Positions 52,385 through 61,744 of a stretch of 64,000 nt of DNA are shown here, piece after piece. Within the stretch, counting starts at the first letter, position 1, and every line of letters begins with the position of its first letter. Made by a program: the position numbers and the translations under genes. Location: positions 320,001-384,000 of the forward strand of contig OZ243913.1 of assembly GCA_965213705.1 (NCBI GenBank). Reading direction: 5' to 3'. The DNA is from Trueperaceae bacterium. Lineage in GTDB: Bacteria; Deinococcota; Deinococci; Deinococcales; Trueperaceae. The notes below the pieces were generated by a model, which was given only the letters and a program-made list of their open reading frames with translations, searched no databases and was not told the origin of the DNA.

Positions 52385-52978
52385 TTACAGCTTAGCACGA
52401 GCGCGGGCCAAGCCGAGTCGGGCCGCGTCTGCGGGGGTGTCGACGTCGAACGCTTCTTCAAGGTTTACGACGGCAACCCGCGCCCGGTCTTGCAGGGCGC
52501 GCGCGCCTGTGTCGCCGGTCAGCGTTTGAACGGCGCCGAACAGCGCCGCGTCTATCAGGGTCGGCGCGCCGCGCACGCCGTCGTACAAGGAGAAAACCAG
52601 GGCCGCAGCCTCGGCGCGGTAGACGGCGAGCATTTTCTCGAAGTGTTTGACCGGCACGAGCGGCTGGTCGCCAAGCAGGACGAGCGCCGCCGCAGTATTT
52701 TCGGGCAAGGCGGCGATCCCCGCGCGCAACGACGAGGCCAAACCCTCTTGCCAGTCGGGATTGACGACGACCTCGGCCCCGGCCGCTTTCGCCAAGGGCG
52801 CGTAAAGCTCCGCATAAGTCCCGACGACCACGACGACGTGAGGGACGACCTGTAAAGCCGTCTCGACAGCTCGAGCCAGCAGGGTTTTTCCCCCGAACTC
52901 CAGGGCCAACTTCGGCTCACCCATCCTGCGGCTTTCACCTCCGGCGAGGACGACGGCTGCGACGACGGAAGGGGTCAC
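52385..52978 (-). CDS. MocA/MobA-like nucleotidyltransferase
   Basis: LAGGESRRMGEPKL, LGDQP, GDTGAR, DVDTP; GTGA overlap with the upstream gene. Confidence 0.88.
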   Translation of the reverse strand: MTPSVVAAVVLAGGESRRMGEPKLALEFGGKTLLARAVETALQVVPHVVVVVGTYAELYAPLAKAAGAEVVVNPDWQEGLASSLRAGIAALPENTAAALVLLGDQPLVPVKHFEKMLAVYRAEAAALVFSLYDGVRGAPTLIDAALFGAVQTLTGDTGARALQDRARVAVVNLEEAFDVDTPADAARLGLARARAKL

Positions 52979-54099
52979 AGCTTGCCCAAACGGCGCTCCA
53001 AAGCCACAAGGCTGCTCAAGTTGTGCGAGGGCGCGAACACGTCTACAAAGGGCAGCGCGGTCCGCATCCCACTGGCGGTGGGTTCGTAGCCGGGGCTCGC
53101 CGCCAGCGGGTTGAGCCAGATGATGTGCCGGGTGCGCTCTTTTAAGCCCCGCATGGCTCTTGCCAACACGTCCAGCTCGCCCGTGTCCCAACCGTCGCTG
53201 TTGACAATCAAAATCGTTTTGTCGTCGAGGAGCTGACCGTAGCGCTCCAACAGGGCGGTCAGCGACGCGCCGATTTTGGTGCCGCCGCTGCGCCCCGGCA
53301 TGGCGAGCCGCGCCGCCCGCAACGCCTCGGCGACGCCGCCCCGCTGCAAGTGTGCGGTGAGTGGGTACAGCTCGGTGCTGAAGCCGAATACTTCGGTCCG
53401 GCTCGAGCGCCGCTCGCGCACGAAGGCGTAGGCGAGTTGCAGCAGCAACCCGCTGTGAACCATCATCGACCCCGACACGTCGAACACGAACACCACGCGC
53501 GTTTTGCCGGTCGCGCGGGTTTTATAGCGCAACTCCACGGGCACGCCGCCGAAGGCCAGACTGCGCCGTAAGGTCCGGCGCAGGTCGACGTGTCCACGGC
53601 GCTGCGCGGCGACCGTCCACCGTCTCGAGGGCCGGGTCGCCAAACGCTTGACGAGTCGCCGAACGAGTTTGGAAAGCACCTCGACCTCGCTCGTTTGCAC
53701 CGCGGCGTCGCCTTGCGCGACGACCTCCGCGGCGCTGTAGGCTTGCGTGTCCACCGTTTCGTCGCTGCCCTCGCCCGCCTGCCAGTCGAGGAGCGACACG
53801 CCCTGCAAACGGGGCGGTTTAGGCGGCGGGTTTTGTCTGGGCGCGGGGTCGGTGTCGTCTAATAAACCACCCCGCCAGTAATGCTCGAACAGCCACTCGA
53901 ACAGCCGCTGCTCGGCGGGCGAGGTCGCGAACAAACCGCGCAGCGCCAGGCGCACCTCGTCCCGGTCGGCCAAATCGACCGCGCCCAGCGCGGAGTGCGC
54001 CAGCGCCACCTCCTGCGGCGATACGAGCAGGTCGGCCGCCCGCAACCTGTGGGCGAAACTGAGGAGGTTGGCCTCGAGGGTGGCGGGATACGGCGTCAT
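52975..54099 (-). CDS. CoxE-like VWA domain protein
   Basis: DVSGSM MIDAS, GGTKIG, SDGWD, WLNPL. Confidence 0.9.
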   Translation of the reverse strand: MTPYPATLEANLLSFAHRLRAADLLVSPQEVALAHSALGAVDLADRDEVRLALRGLFATSPAEQRLFEWLFEHYWRGGLLDDTDPAPRQNPPPKPPRLQGVSLLDWQAGEGSDETVDTQAYSAAEVVAQGDAAVQTSEVEVLSKLVRRLVKRLATRPSRRWTVAAQRRGHVDLRRTLRRSLAFGGVPVELRYKTRATGKTRVVFVFDVSGSMMVHSGLLLQLAYAFVRERRSSRTEVFGFSTELYPLTAHLQRGGVAEALRAARLAMPGRSGGTKIGASLTALLERYGQLLDDKTILIVNSDGWDTGELDVLARAMRGLKERTRHIIWLNPLAASPGYEPTASGMRTALPFVDVFAPSHNLSSLVALERRLGKL

Positions 54100-54153
54100 A
54101 GCGTCATTCGTTCTTCGTGATTCGTAAAACTAACAACGAAAAGAACAATCCCC

Positions 54154-55098
54154 TTACCCCTGCCGGGCGCTCAACCGCTGCCAGGCCCGCTCGAGGCCCA
54201 CCTCTTCTTGACCCGGCTCGACGTTTTTGAGCGCGTCTAAAAGCGCGGGCAGCCACACCGAGCGAAAGCGCCGCTGGTCCTCGGCGTGTTTCAGCAGCAC
54301 GCTGACGGTGGTTTGCAGGGTTTCGGCGTCGAGCCGTTCGCGGTCGAACAGGGCCAAGGCCGCGGCCCAGTCCAGGCTTTCGGCGACGCCGGGCGTTTTC
54401 TCCAGCGGCAACCGGCGCAGCAGTTGCACCATCGCGACGACGCGCGCGCTCAAGGCCTCGCTCACGCCCGGCACCTTGGCGCGGACGATTTGCAGTTCTT
54501 TGTCGAACGGCGGGTAGTCCAGCCACAGGTACAAACAGCGCCGCCGCAGCGCGTCGGACAGTTCGCGGGTGCGGTTGCTTGTCAATACGGTAAAGGGGAC
54601 GTGTTCGGCGCGCACCGTGCCGAGTTCGGGCACGGACACTTGCCAGTCGGACAAGAGTTCGAGCAAAAACGCCTCGAACGCCTCGTCGGCGCGGTCGATT
54701 TCGTCGATGAGGAGGACCGGCGACCGGTCCCGCGTAATCGCCTTGAGGAGCGGCCGCTCGAGCAAAAAGTCGGGGCCGAAGATGGCGGCTTCGCGGGCCT
54801 CGAGGGTTTTGCTCGAGCCCTCTTCCATGCGGATATGGAGAAGCTGTTTTTGGTAATTCCACTCGTAAAGCGCGGTCGAGGCGTCCAGCCCTTCGTAACA
54901 CTGCAAGCGGATGAGTTCGGTCTCTTGCACCTCTGCCATCGCCTTGGCGATTTCGGTTTTGCCGACGCCCGCCGGGCCTTCGACCAGCAAAGGTCGCTGT
55001 AGGCGCTCGGCCAAGTGGACGGCCGTCGCAATCTCGCGTCCAGCGATGTAGCCGCGCGCTTCTAAGGTGGTTTGAATGGTCTCGATGTCGGCGTGCAT
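54154..55098 (-). CDS. CoxD/MoxR-type AAA+ ATPase
   Basis: EGPAGVGKTE, RLQCYEGLD, LIDEIDRAD, DALRRRC. Confidence 0.92.
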   Translation of the reverse strand: MHADIETIQTTLEARGYIAGREIATAVHLAERLQRPLLVEGPAGVGKTEIAKAMAEVQETELIRLQCYEGLDASTALYEWNYQKQLLHIRMEEGSSKTLEAREAAIFGPDFLLERPLLKAITRDRSPVLLIDEIDRADEAFEAFLLELLSDWQVSVPELGTVRAEHVPFTVLTSNRTRELSDALRRRCLYLWLDYPPFDKELQIVRAKVPGVSEALSARVVAMVQLLRRLPLEKTPGVAESLDWAAALALFDRERLDAETLQTTVSVLLKHAEDQRRFRSVWLPALLDALKNVEPGQEEVGLERAWQRLSARQG

Positions 55099-55264: not shown

Positions 55265-56886
<1,622 letters not shown>

Positions 56887-56890
<4 letters not shown>

Positions 56891-58290
56891 GAAGTGGGTG
56901 TTTTTAGCTGCTCGAGTTCTTGTAAAAGAAGTTCATAATTTTCGGCAACCATGTGTGTATTTACGTGGCCCTCACCTAATCTATCGGTAACGATAGCTAA
57001 CGCTTCACGGTAGAGTGATTCGGCCTCATCATAACGTCCCGTGTTTTTAAGTAAGTTCGCTAGGTTGTTGAGGTCTCTCGCATAATTTGGATGTGCCTCT
57101 CCCAGAGTTTTTTTGTCAATCTCCACCGCTTTAAGAAAGAGCGATTCGGCTTCATCGTAGCGACCTGTATTCTCGAGCAAATACGCTAGATTGTTGAGAT
57201 TGGTAGCGTATCCTGGATGCCCATCTCCAAACACCTCTTTACTAATTTTTAATGCTTCACGGTAAAGTGATTCAGCCTCATCGTAGCAGCCTGTGCTTTC
57301 GAGCAAATTTGCTAAGTTGCTCAGGTCGATTGCATAGTTGGGATGTGTCTTTCCAAATATTTCCCTATCAATTTCCACCGCTTTGCGGAACAGCGACTCT
57401 GCTTCTCGATAGCGGCCTGTCTGTTCAAGCAAACCCCCTAAGTTATTTAAGTTAGCAGCGTAGTCTACATTTCTATTGCCTTTCTCTTTTGAGCTAATTT
57501 CGATTGCTTTACGGAGTAATGGCTCAGCTTCGTCATAGCGGCTCATGTTCATGTAGGCTAAAGCTAAATCGTTAAGCGCGTTGTTTAGTAGTTTGTCATG
57601 CTCCAAAACTCTTGCCAGTTCTAAATTGTGCTGCGCTTCATCTGCCATCATCTCGTAAAGGCCGAGTCCATAAAGAGCCTTCGTCAAACGTAGCCGCGTC
57701 CGAGCAACGTAAGCCAAATCCGGTTCATCCCGCTCCAACTGCCCCTTCAAAATCTCCCGGTACAGCGCAACTTGTTCTTCTAAATCGCCTCTTTCAAAGG
57801 CGTCGGCCTCCTCAAGTGCTCGGTAACTCGGCGCACCCGGCTCCAACTCACCCCGAACATCAAACACCCCACTCCGCCACGCCCAAAAGTCCGGCGCACG
57901 CTTCATCAGGCGTACAAGTTGCTCCTCGCGCAGCCACAGCACGACCGCGTGGGGCGCGTCTTCAAAAGCTTCACGCTGAATGTTCACGTAGCCTGCGAAC
58001 TTGTCGAAGTCGCTCTTGCCCTCCGGTAGGCTGCTGCCCAAAAAGGTGTAAAAGATGGCTTGGCGGGGTTCTTTGGGCAAGTCCAGAAACGTCCTGACCG
58101 GATTCAGGTTGTCGCCTTTGAGCGCGACTTCGGTCACGGGCAGGCTAATCAGGTTTTTTAGCTTAGTGGCGTTCTCGCGTTGTTCTTTGGCGTCGCGGTA
58201 GAGGACGAAGGTGATGACGGAGTTGTCGGTGGCCTCGAGCAGAACCTTTAGCTTTCTATAACTATGGTCTATGTCAGCTTGAGTGGGCAT
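56887..58290 (-). CDS. TPR protein with N-terminal degenerate NTPase-like domain
   Basis: VVLWL...APDFWAWRSGVF followed by about five 42-aa TPRs (HPNYA..LNNLA.LL..TGRYDEAESL). Confidence 0.88.
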
Positions 58291-58291
58291 G

Positions 58292-59542
58292 TCATTTTTT
58301 CAACAAGTCGTCGACTAAGGGGTTGACATCATACCAAATCTCATCGTTTTCGTATTCCAGGACGCTTAGGGTATGGAGAAGTTCTTGACTATGCTCGTCC
58401 TGATTTATGTCACGGCGCGTCTTGACTATTTTTAGTCGCGCAAGCTGTTCGTCGCTCAGCATACGTTTGAAACTCTTTCGTTCTCCGGCTATGGCAGCCT
58501 CTACATGGGCAACCCGTACGATGTTGCTGTCGGAAACCTCAGCTTCTAAACAGGCATCCCTAGCAAGCTTGAGAAGCTGGCGCGGCAACCCACCGCTGTA
58601 AGTTACAAGCAATTCGAGGGCTTCGTCTTCAAGAAGATGTGCCTCGAGACGGTTTAACAGAATGGTACTCAGCGCGGCTTTACCGGAAATACTGGGTCTG
58701 CCATTTTTGTTTTCGACCTTAAAGTTCGGCAAAGTGTAGGTAGCGCTGAAATAGTTGGAAATGTGCACAAAGTTGTCACTCCGGCTCAGCGCGACAGGGA
58801 AGGTATAAATAATAGCCAACTCGGGCGCGCTTATAGACTCGCCGTTGTCGTAAAAAATATTTTTGGCTTTGCTAAGGTCTGTTTTGTCGAGGTCTTCCAC
58901 AACGCATAGAACACGTTTCTGGGTCAGCTTTTCTATCTCTCTAGCAAGCGTGTCCAAACCCTCGAGCAGCTCAGAGACGCGGTGCTGAACTTTTTGGCGC
59001 ATGATGTCGCGGGTACTATGTTCACTCTTCATCTTGACACCCAACTGCGCGAACGTTGCTAACACACCACCGGCACCCACACTAACTTCTCCACTTCTGG
59101 ATGAACCACTTTCGCTTTGCACTTCGGCTTCTTTTCCAAACGACCACAGGGTCTCGAGTTGGGCGAGCGTCTTTTTCGACAAAGACAGTTTTTCGGTTTT
59201 TACCTTTTCAGCGAGTTGAACCGCCATCGACAGCAGAACGTCGATGTACTCTAGGTCGAACAGATTAAGGACATCTCTGAGCGGATAGCGCACGATGAAA
59301 AACTCGTCTTGTAAGTGCGCTTCGAGCTTGGCGAGTTCCGTACTTTTGCCGTTGCCCCGGTGACCCGTGAGCAGAAATTTCTGAGGATAGGCAACGCTGA
59401 GCATTTTTGCAACCCGTCTGATGGGGCTGTGCTCTCGTGAAACATAATAGTCTGCCAACTCTTTAAGCTCAAGTGAGTGAATGGGCTCGAGATTCTTAAT
59501 CGCCTCGTCCAAGTTTCGCGCTTTGTGCTCGAGCAGGGCCAC
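58292..59542 (-). CDS. P-loop ATPase (STAND-like)
   Basis: Walker A GHRGNGKST, Walker B CVVEDLDK, SGGLPR, C-terminal LEYEN..WYDVNPLV. Confidence 0.82.
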   Translation of the reverse strand: MALLEHKARNLDEAIKNLEPIHSLELKELADYYVSREHSPIRRVAKMLSVAYPQKFLLTGHRGNGKSTELAKLEAHLQDEFFIVRYPLRDVLNLFDLEYIDVLLSMAVQLAEKVKTEKLSLSKKTLAQLETLWSFGKEAEVQSESGSSRSGEVSVGAGGVLATFAQLGVKMKSEHSTRDIMRQKVQHRVSELLEGLDTLAREIEKLTQKRVLCVVEDLDKTDLSKAKNIFYDNGESISAPELAIIYTFPVALSRSDNFVHISNYFSATYTLPNFKVENKNGRPSISGKAALSTILLNRLEAHLLEDEALELLVTYSGGLPRQLLKLARDACLEAEVSDSNIVRVAHVEAAIAGERKSFKRMLSDEQLARLKIVKTRRDINQDEHSQELLHTLSVLEYENDEIWYDVNPLVDDLLKK

Positions 59543-59677
59543 ACCCCTAATCTAGCACGCTTCTTTTAAGACTCCGGCCCTTTACAAGGCGAAAACGAAA
59601 CTTCCTTAAACTGACGAGAACCCCACTTCACGCCGTCGCCGACGTTTGTTCAGAAGGAATCTGCTACCCTGTAACCA

Positions 59678-61744
59678 ATGTCCGACATCGACCTACGCGA
59701 CCCGCAGTATTATTTCAACCGCGAACTGTCCTGGCTGCGCTTTAACGAGCGCGTGCTGGCCGAGGCCGTCGACCCCGACAACCCGCTCTTGGAACAGCTC
59801 AAGTTTTTGGCGATTTTCAGCACCAACTTGGACGAGTTCATGATGATTCGCTACGCGGGCCTCAAAGAGCAAGCCGCCGCGGGCATCGACAAGCGCAGCG
59901 CCGACGGCCTGACGCCGGTCGAACAGCTCGACGCCATTGCCAGCACGCTGCACCCGCTCGTCGCCGAGCACCGCCGTTTGTTGGGTAAGGTCGTGCTGCC
60001 CGCGCTGGAAAAACACGGCGTCGCCGTGGTGCCTGTCGCCGAGTTGCAAGAGCGCGACCAGGCGGCGGTCGAAACCTTTTTCGAGGACGAACTGTTCCCG
60101 GTGCTGACGCCGCTCGCGGTCGACGCGACGCATCCGTTTCCGCGGTTACCGAATTTAAGTTTTTCGATCATGCTGGACGTGTTCGACCCCGAAACGCAGA
60201 CGACCAAAATGGCGGTCGTGCAAGTACCAGGCGTGCTGCCGCGCTTTTTGAAACTACCTGGCAAAGGCTACCGCTTCGCGATGTTGGAAGACATCATCAA
60301 AAGCCGGGTTGACGCGCTGTTTCCGGGTTACGAGGTCAAGCGCGCCCACGCCTTTAGGCTCACCCGCAACGCCGACATTGAAATTGCCGAGGACGAGGCC
60401 GACGACCTACTGCAGGTTATCGAGGACGAGGTGCGCCGCCGCCGCTGGGGCGACGCGGTGCGCTTAGAAGTCAGCGCGGACATGCCCAAAGCCTGGCGAC
60501 ACTACCTGCGCGACACCCACCGGCTCACCAAGGACGACGTCTACGACATCGACAACCACCTCAACGTCGGGGACTTTATGGAGTTGGCGCTCTTAGACAT
60601 TCCGCACCTGCGCTACCCGCCGTTTGTGACCCGGCTGCCGACTGAATACCGGTTCGAGGACAACATCTTCGACGCGGTGCGGCAGGGGGACATCCTCATC
60701 CATCACCCGTTTCACGACTTCGACGCGGTGTTGAACATGATAGAGCAAGCCGCCGACGACCCCAAGGTGCTCGCCATCAAACAGACGCTCTACCGCGTCG
60801 GCAACCGCTCGCCGGTGGTGGCGGCGCTCGCGCGGGCGGCGGGCAACGGCAAGCTCGTCACGGCGTTGGTCGAACTCAAGGCGCGCTTCGACGAGGAGAA
60901 CAACATCGTCTGGGCCAAAGAGTTGGAGCGCGCGGGCGTCCACGTCGTCTACGGCTTCGCCGGGCTCAAGACGCACTGCAAAGCCCTCCTCGTCGTGCGG
61001 CGCGAGGGCAAAGACATCCGGCGTTACGTCCACTTAGGCACCGGCAACTACAACCCCGGCACGAGCACGATTTACACCGACTTCGCGCTGCTCAGTTGCG
61101 ACGAGGACTTGGGCGCGGACACGTCCGAGCTGTTCAACTACCTCACCGGCTTTTCGAAACAGAACAGTTGGCGCAAACTCTGGATCGCGCCTGAAAACTT
61201 GCGTGACAAAATCATCGAGGCCATTGACCGGGAAACCGCCCACGCCGAGGCGGGTGAGGGTGGACACATCGTCGCGAAAATGAACGCCCTCGTCGACCCT
61301 GAGGTGATTCGGGCTCTATACCGGGCTTCACAAGCGGGCGTCAACATCGAACTCGTCGTGCGCGGCATCTGCTGTTTGCGGCCGGGCGTCAAGGGCGTGA
61401 GCGAGACGATAAGCGTGCGCAGCGTGGTCGGGCGATTTTTGGAGCACTCGAGGGCCTTTTACTTTCAGCACGGCGGCGCGGACAGCCTCTACATCGGCTC
61501 GGCCGACTGGATGCAGCGCAACTTAAACCGCCGCGTCGAGGCCCTGGTGCCGGTCGAGGACGAGCACCTGAAGCGAAAAATCATGCAAGTCTTCGACCTG
61601 ATGCTGCGCGACAACGAAAAAGCTCGAGTGCTGCGAAGCGACGGCAGCTACGTCTGCGTCAAGCGCAAACCCGGCCAAAAACGCCTGAACTCGCAAGAGC
61701 GGCTGTTAGAACTCTCGGCCAAGCGCCTGGCGCAGGTGGCGTGA
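59678..61744 (+). CDS. ppk1: Polyphosphate kinase 1
   Basis: FNRELSWLRFNERVL, HPFP, KQTLYR, ELKARFDEENNI, KTHCK, GRFLEHSR. Confidence 0.97.
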   Translation: MSDIDLRDPQYYFNRELSWLRFNERVLAEAVDPDNPLLEQLKFLAIFSTNLDEFMMIRYAGLKEQAAAGIDKRSADGLTPVEQLDAIASTLHPLVAEHRRLLGKVVLPALEKHGVAVVPVAELQERDQAAVETFFEDELFPVLTPLAVDATHPFPRLPNLSFSIMLDVFDPETQTTKMAVVQVPGVLPRFLKLPGKGYRFAMLEDIIKSRVDALFPGYEVKRAHAFRLTRNADIEIAEDEADDLLQVIEDEVRRRRWGDAVRLEVSADMPKAWRHYLRDTHRLTKDDVYDIDNHLNVGDFMELALLDIPHLRYPPFVTRLPTEYRFEDNIFDAVRQGDILIHHPFHDFDAVLNMIEQAADDPKVLAIKQTLYRVGNRSPVVAALARAAGNGKLVTALVELKARFDEENNIVWAKELERAGVHVVYGFAGLKTHCKALLVVRREGKDIRRYVHLGTGNYNPGTSTIYTDFALLSCDEDLGADTSELFNYLTGFSKQNSWRKLWIAPENLRDKIIEAIDRETAHAEAGEGGHIVAKMNALVDPEVIRALYRASQAGVNIELVVRGICCLRPGVKGVSETISVRSVVGRFLEHSRAFYFQHGGADSLYIGSADWMQRNLNRRVEALVPVEDEHLKRKIMQVFDLMLRDNEKARVLRSDGSYVCVKRKPGQKRLNSQERLLELSAKRLAQVA

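Follow-up and report, generated by a model that had tools for sequence, protein, structure and literature searches.

A widespread gene pair of a Cdc6-like AAA+ ATPase and an N-domain–TPR partner: a candidate sensor-triggered immune module

What is the role of a small two-gene operon that sits between an amidohydrolase gene and ppk1 and whose products fall below the cut-offs of the profile libraries? The operon is located in the window (the whole stretch of 64,000 nucleotides that was analysed) and comprises two minus-strand genes separated by a single nucleotide: gene 1 (58292-59542) encodes 416 aa from a GTG start, and gene 2 (56887-58290) encodes 467 aa consisting of an N-domain and an array of TPRs. 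Both flanking genes lie on the plus strand, the amidohydrolase (Amidohydro_3) at 55265-56890 and ppk1 at 59678-61744. An earlier note on this DNA had described an AT-richer operon with this gap, these flanks and a -10 element of its own, and proposed it as a candidate defence or sensing system; the described features are all present. The stops of gene 2 and of the convergent amidohydrolase overlap by 4 nt (56887-56890), and no intrinsic terminator was found at this convergent end. Beyond the amidohydrolase the window contains a coxD/coxE-like MoxR-vWA pair with a nucleotidyltransferase-like gene (52385-55098, minus strand); in relatives the ATPase–TPR pair is found directly upstream of coxD, while in the window the amidohydrolase intervenes.

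The pair is compositionally foreign to its genome. Its GC-content is 49.3%, compared to 60.9% for the genome, and is equalled in 20 of 1599 genomic segments of the same size; GC3 is 0.53-0.56 in the pair and 0.80-0.83 in both flanking genes. It is present in single copy, with no paralogue elsewhere in its own genome, and over both genes the long pieces listed for contigs of run X1, which probably comes from the source sample, show no differences.

An extended -10 sequence, TGcTAGATT (59549..59557, minus strand), lies 6 nt 5' of the GTG of gene 1 and is likely, judging from its sequence and position, to be a leaderless-type promoter. The TAGATT element is credible because TAnnnT has a modal spacing of 6 nt in the genome (113 of 1000 long ORFs, against 3-29 at spacings outside 5-7) and because the extended motif CGTGCTA(G/A)ATT is kept 5-6 nt upstream of the start at five of five orthologous loci. 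A sigma-70 scan did not list the element, since the scan demands a -35. In genome G000, TAnnnT stands 5-7 nt before ATG in 205 of 1000 long ORFs, a pattern pointing to frequent leaderless transcripts. No RNA holder is listed for the locus; leaderless -10 promoters are described from the phylum of the source genome in the available text of PMC4007540 and PMC12340547.

On the evidence of its predicted structure, gene 1 encodes an ORC/Cdc6-clade AAA+ ATPase with intact Walker A and B motifs. The AlphaFold2 model (pLDDT 93; 58292..59542, minus strand, as are all features of the pair) comprises an AAA+ core, a helical insert, a lid and a winged-helix-like tail. The Walker A motif GHRGNGKST (residues 60-68; 59339..59365) contains K66, kept in 204 of 206 homologues; Walker B, VVEDLDK (214-220; 58883..58903), is acidic at two positions, 216 (205 of 206) and 219 (all 206). 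Between the two the model places the helical insert (residues ~118-190; 58973..59191). The lid motif GGLPR (317-321; 58580..58594) ends in the sensor-2-type R321, which is conserved in 71/71 sequences of one alignment and in 171/206 of a larger one, and R298 is kept in 205/206. Insert and lid form the most variable part of the ATPase among alleles of the same family (48% mean identity). The C-terminal domain (346-416; 58295..58507) is assigned from secondary structure and from similarity to Cdc6/Orc1, and retains Y397, W403 and P408 in 200, 204 and 205 of 206 homologues, respectively. Its three predicted helices and beta-hairpin fit the winged-helix tail that the earlier note had thought probable, the fold itself being modelled. 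All of the first ten Foldseek matches are Cdc6/Orc proteins (TM 0.34-0.43), the best being the Cdc6/Orc1 structures 2qby and 1fnn (E 1e-8 to 1e-7, TM ~0.4).

The same note had called gene 1 STAND-like. That it is an ATPase with intact Walker motifs stands, but it is nearer to Cdc6/Orc1 than to classical STAND proteins, because its top Foldseek matches are of that kind, the sensor-2 arginine is retained and the GxP proline is not conserved (G318 is invariant, while P320 occurs in 10 of 71 sequences). The GxP motif is what we take to be the mark of classical STAND ATPases (NACHT, AP-ATPase, nSTAND1). Gene 1 has no Pfam match to NACHT, NB-ARC or nSTAND at E≤1, and on the missing clade profile, the proline and the sensor-2 arginine together we rejected it as a classical STAND. 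The arginine-finger column, which in AAA+ proteins precedes strand 5 and which was assigned on the predicted structure, holds arginine in 34 of 206 ATPases and tyrosine in gene 1; on this alignment the family is without a conserved arginine finger.

The first 148 residues of gene 2 (57847..58290) form, in the predicted model, an alpha/beta N-domain of five strands without a Walker A. TPR-type helices follow directly, with no lid or wHTH between, and after several helical pairs culminate in five 42-aa TPRs of the kinesin-light-chain type (residues 233-442; 56965..57594), a hypervariable array and putative sensor. This bears out the arrangement first read from the letters, and the motifs named there (GHRGNGKST, VVEDLDK, GGLPR, VVLWL, APDFWAWRSGVF and the 42-aa repeats) were all recovered. 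The proposal that the N-domain is a degenerate NTPase fares less simply. In its favor, the predicted strands are spaced as in an AAA+ core and in matching order, and hhalign brings strand 1 with its helix, Walker B (GLE in the N-domain, DLD in the ATPase) and the sensor-1 strand into register with the ATPase; against it, the alignment of the two profiles falls short of significance (best P=0.02, probability 2.4%). No significant sequence link from the N-domain to any NTPase was found, and PDB sequence searches with it returned nothing meaningful. Fold searches, which the note had suggested for both N-termini, led from gene 1 to Cdc6/Orc, while the match lists for full-length gene 2 were filled by its TPRs. 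None of 168 N-domains has a Walker A. R106 is present in 168/168, D134 in 167/168 and W138 in 160/168; R106 comes after the Walker-B helix, and the canonical finger position holds R or K in 118/168. We consider the N-domain likely, from its predicted topology and motif register, to be a dead AAA+-like NTPase.

Searches of Pfam, NCBIfam and PADLOC gave no family above cut-off for gene 1 or for the N-domain, in keeping with the original impression that the pair matches no characterised system. Weak matches to DS-41 (16 of 102 members), mad8, IetA and PDC-M71B were judged to be generic P-loop or TPR similarity. In the ESM Atlas the ATPase falls into clusters labelled KAP/AAA_16 at 0.97-0.99, and the N-domain into unlabelled clusters below 0.9.

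If the two genes form a functional unit, then their homologues should occur together. In a metagenome set that was not used to build the partner profile (80 loci, some of them near duplicates, of which 19 were too short and 61 evaluable), a partner lies beside 58 of 62 evaluable ATPase genes. Among genome loci, hand-picked in favor of complete multi-copy genomes and themselves the source of the partner profile, 65 of 69 ATPases have a partner within 3 kb downstream, one of these partners having been added by hand. Of the 33 strong partner matches in five whole genomes, 28 adjoin an ATPase, and of the 29 ATPase matches 27 adjoin a partner. Co-occurrence is the rule; an ATPase fused to a vWA protein and two orphan intact ATPases (L078 and L105) lack a nearby partner, which implies that a partner in cis is not always needed. 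In a recurrent layout of cyanobacterial type (L070, L096, L128, L106) the ATPase is preceded by a full partner (~525 aa); three of the four loci also have, on its downstream side, a short partner of 190-210 aa that carries almost no TPRs. G101 carries a second, broken copy of the pair, with ATPase and partner in pieces (L024:8818-10846), and the ATPases in L133 and L150 are likewise broken.

The ATPase is patchily distributed, and is not part of the core genome of the relatives: it is found in 11 of 128 genomes of the family and 13 of 265 of the phylum, both counts including the source genome and the unpublished G089. In a sample of 151 genomes from a phylum that we take to be cyanobacteria, at least 45 carry it, with at least 1-7 matches each. 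The ATPase family comprises 2307 clusters at 50% identity (E≤1e-30). Five plasmid records with relatives were found, all from Nostoc; phage collections yielded no relative and no phage-borne copy. No match to a known housekeeping function was found for the pair.

The pattern of divergence within the module is uneven. In two congeneric pairs that carry the module at the same site upstream of coxD, the CoxD proteins are 95-96% and the N-domains 88-91% identical, compared to 52-59% for the ATPases and 39-53% for the TPRs. Values of pS for the N-domain follow those for coxD (0.46 against 0.49 and 0.23 against 0.24), while those for the ATPase (0.78 and 0.74) and the TPRs (0.78 and 0.63) are at or near saturation. 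Because dS is saturated, dN/dS is uninformative for positive selection, and we read the divergence as replacement of alleles, not as measured adaptive evolution. From 18 pairs, 13 of them paired only by the equal size of their contigs, at least three supported ATPase allele clades were recovered, ~50-60% apart beside N-domains that are 78-97% alike; the clades cut across N-domain similarity, the N-domain tree being poorly resolved. Contigs of a second sample, the joints of which are of equal depth and which were read as one contig, match the promoter side and the start of the partner but, inside the ATPase, only residues 56-74 and 211-222, and minor contigs of the same mosaic kind are present in the first sample. 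At the level of sequence, alleles of the ATPase and of the TPRs are exchanged, whereas the N-domain stays in step with the flanking genes; this mosaic around a conserved anchor clearly illustrates how cassettes can be exchanged within a single operon. The alleles of ATPase and TPRs do not covary (Spearman 0.14, p=0.14, 120 non-independent pairs).

The slot itself is also subject to replacement. In the congener G027 the place between amidohydrolase and ppk1 is taken by a 597-aa SIR2_2+TPR gene of 45% GC (L131:3131-4924 = G027:C7, minus strand) that matches PADLOC SIR2 models; this is one event in one congener. The gene resembles PADLOC PDC-S65 and the N-termini of SIR2-Argonaute systems, and is a candidate stand-alone defence gene. 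Neighboring genes differ widely between loci. In three genera the pair is kept upstream of coxD, an unusual stability for a mobile defence gene. At one locus (L101:8025-9759) a complete HEC-01A/B candidate defence system lies between an ATPase and its nSTAND1-bearing partner. The enrichment in defence islands that the earlier note had suggested as a check is not significant: PADLOC matches, many of them generic, account for 14 of 126 adjacent and 5 of 96 farther genes (p=0.15). The suggestion of a defence system is favored by allele exchange, patchiness and the SIR2-TPR swap; the neighborhood, with no significant enrichment, speaks against it. On balance a role of some kind in biological conflict appears quite probable from these comparisons.

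If the pair acts in conflict, then something must serve as its effector. In 97 of 97 further homologues the N-domain begins within the first 30 residues. Most partners consist of N-domain and TPRs; 21 of 71 have an nSTAND1-type Walker A (confirmed by Pfam in 4), the longer of them bearing WD40 repeats as well, and the N-domain also heads NACHT and NB-ARC proteins. One partner combines it with AAA_16 and STAS (L173:6253-8073) and another with a CHAT peptidase (P0319). Nuclease, TIR, SIR2, HEPN and GT4 domains are absent from the families listed, at most 25 for each, in the 36 partners scanned. In NLR-like proteins, according to the available text of PMC12803255, the N-terminal place is the effector slot. 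An ATPase of the gene 1 family is itself fused in the effector position of a VMAP-MoxR-vWA ternary system (L129:5078-10251, on the Nostoc sp. C057 plasmid NZ_CP040291.1): the vWA protein carries an intact member of the ATPase family at its C-terminal end, and no partner domain was found within the 19 kb covered. The N-terminal slot, the VMAP fusion and the SIR2 swap together suggest, at the level of domain architecture, that N-domain and ATPase jointly fill the role of an effector domain. The earlier note had pictured a split switch with no recognisable effector; no fused effector is indeed found, but the architectures put N-domain and ATPase in the effector slot.

Our proposal, made by analogy and with a probability of roughly 0.42, is that the pair forms an immune module triggered by its sensor, with the ATPase as effector. 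An invader protein, from a phage or otherwise, would be caught by the TPR array; the N-domain would then become exposed or clustered and dock on the nucleotide face of the ATPase, lending it the arginine that it lacks, with R106 as first candidate and R/K139 as second. Once active, the ATPase would be toxic in its own right and arrest the cell, whether by binding DNA through its winged helix, by remodelling a host target or by draining ATP. The AAA+ fold of the N-domain, its physical binding, activation by an arginine in trans, the invader trigger and the effector role of the ATPase are all steps that we infer. The arginine proposal follows from the contrast between 34 of 206 ATPases with arginine at the finger column and 168 of 168 partners with R106, and has a parallel in BREX, where BrxB inserts its R182 into the ATP pocket of BrxC, an ATPase that BrxB stimulates 2-6 fold (available text of PMC13326643).

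Prediction of the complex of gene 1 and gene 2 scored 0.58 against 0.00 for the best control, with contacts agreeing in at least 82% and partner pLDDT of at least 77; the tool's benchmark rates scores of up to 0.60 as weak: in that range 18 of 157 solved complexes passed, as did two of 215 mismatches, the only two of these to pass. The pass may reflect the likeness of the model to solved AAA+ pairs. Against the proposal count the place of R106 after the Walker-B helix, outside the canonical finger position, and the fact that ATPase alleles 50-60% alike under a constant N-domain would require a very conserved interface; no precedent for an ORC/Cdc6-type ATPase as a lethal effector was found in the literature examined. 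Doubtful as a whole is a broader model in which a dead AAA+ plug-in heads TPR arrays and three NLR-type receptors and, upon sensing, completes the active site of a separate Cdc6-like ATPase that executes the response, the docking domain staying fixed in populations while ATPase and sensor alleles are shuffled and the DNA of the N-domain serves as recombination anchor.

The N-domain could also act in the opposite sense, capping a toxic ATPase and blocking its oligomerisation until binding of an invader by the TPRs frees it, as in a guard or toxin-antitoxin system. BrxB occupies the face needed for self-assembly of BrxC and precludes that assembly, as far as the available text of PMC13326643 goes; the tight operon with the ATPase gene first and the partner-free ATPase fused in the VMAP system would fit as well. 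The ATPase has no conserved finger of its own, however, such that release alone may not activate it; intact orphan ATPases exist (L078, L105); and an N-terminal place on oligomerising STAND proteins suits recruitment better than capping. We regard such a guard as unlikely.

Distinctly unlikely is a signal-transduction or transcription switch, a non-lethal regulator or loader whose TPRs would sense a cue, be it peptide or protein, and whose ATPase would use the winged helix to act on DNA. The saturation of allele exchange, the low GC and the SIR2-TPR gene found at the same site suit conflict genes better, and neighbors that vary from locus to locus leave no shared regulated gene apparent, even though the Cdc6/Orc1-like fold with its conserved wing, the multiple copies in large genomes of cyanobacterial type, the non-significant defence-island enrichment and the existence of non-immune STANDs (reported in the available text of PMC12803255) could all be accommodated.

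Several deep alleles at one locus, some together in one sample, recall fungal het loci or exclusion determinants, and the polymorphic ATPase and TPR alleles might then serve recognition of kin or non-self, an idea raised for related systems in the accessible part of PMC10907252. Expansion alongside nSTAND1-WD40 proteins in cyanobacterial-type genomes would be in line with this; yet neither a signal peptide nor a membrane segment is evident in the sequences, and the absence of covariation between ATPase and TPR alleles reported above speaks against it, making this reading very unlikely. A housekeeping role as accessory of the CoxD/CoxE (MoxR-vWA) cluster in molybdo-enzyme maturation, to which the position of the pair immediately upstream of coxD and in the same orientation in four relatives (and one gene away in the window) might point, is highly improbable and any functional link to coxD/coxE was rejected, because congeners G027 and G023 retain coxD/coxE without the pair, the other listed loci of the ATPase family have no cox link, and the ATPase is 52-59% identical where CoxD is 95-96%.

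Should a sensor-triggered module with the ATPase as effector prove correct, a receptor whose output is an ATPase activated in trans would constitute a new effector class: the bacterial NLR-like receptors known so far pass their signal on to nucleases, NADases, peptidases or pores. It would also explain why many large nSTAND1-WD40, NACHT and NB-ARC proteins begin with a region that lacks annotation. None of the libraries scanned has a profile dedicated to the ATPase family, large as it is, and the 2.7-kb pair is a minimal form with its own promoter and a natural series of alleles, easy to clone.

How, then, does the pair relate to systems already in print? No description of the ATPase and N-domain family was found in the literature, most subscription papers lying outside the scope of the search. 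What seems new is the widespread ATPase/N-domain–TPR pair; its kind, a two-gene operon of an active and an inactive NTPase, is known from nSTAND2. That system, a mobile two-gene operon with a predicted counter-invader role (Kaur et al. 2021, PMC8195603, available text), shares with ours an active NTPase gene with wHTH in first place, followed by a gene for an inactive NTPase with TPRs, the NTPase origin of the N-domain being inferred in our case. The view that the arrangement matches no system thus stands for the family, which is distinct, but not for the active/inactive STAND operon with TPRs. The dead module of nSTAND2 measures ~320 aa and includes a wHTH, HEPN or GT4 effectors occur, and both proteins have an arginine finger (PMC8195603, same portion); in our pair the presumed dead domain spans ~150 aa and has neither lid nor wHTH, there is no HEPN or GT4, and the ATPase has no conserved finger. 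The nSTAND2 profile PF20702 has no match in the genome (E≤10) and none among 71 N-domains (E≤0.1). On profile, module size, effectors and finger, membership of nSTAND2 was ruled out.

KAP NTPases and the Sll1717 family share with gene 1 the long insert between Walker A and B. Gene 1 matches KAP at E 0.0011, and 59 of 102 members of its family match the Sll1717 profile at E≤0.001; its scores remain below the cut-offs (18.8 against 20 bits for KAP, 24.3 against 75 for Sll1717), it has no transmembrane insert, and unlike these families its best fold matches are Cdc6/Orc1. Of the iSTAND/VMAP MoxR-vWA ternary systems, the available text of PMC7159879 describes the use of inactive STAND-like domains, and one ATPase of the gene 1 family is fused to a VMAP vWA protein; in contrast, the MoxR-vWA neighbors in the window are CoxD/CoxE-like and separable, no iSTAND Pfam match was obtained, and the dead domain is N-terminal to sensors, not C-terminal to effectors.

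In the Avs and NLR-like STAND proteins TPR arrays are likely sensors, as in gene 2 (PMC12803255; bioRxiv 10.1101/2022.07.19.500537; available text). An Avs is one chain of effector, NTPase and sensor, whereas in the window no active STAND stands between N-domain and TPRs, and the ATPase is a separate gene; homologues of gene 2 in other genomes are complete NLR-like proteins with the N-domain at their N-terminus. In BrxB-BrxC, a compact inactive AAA+ protein without Walker motifs or helical bundle partners an ORC/Cdc6-clade ATPase and gives it an arginine (PMC13326643, PMC12839542, available text). The differences are clear: no PglZ, PglX, BrxA or BrxL and no BrxB Pfam match were found here, gene 1 has 416 aa where BrxC has ~1200 and fingers of its own, and BrxB carries a beta-cap insert and evolves fast, while the N-domain evolves more slowly than the rest of our pair and is joined to sensors. 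We also rejected membership of BREX on the flanks of the locus, which are the amidohydrolase, the coxD/coxE-like genes and ppk1, with no genes for PglZ, BrxC or a methyltransferase. By analogy, the pair would work like a BrxB-BrxC couple wired to an NLR-type sensor, while being a member of neither system.
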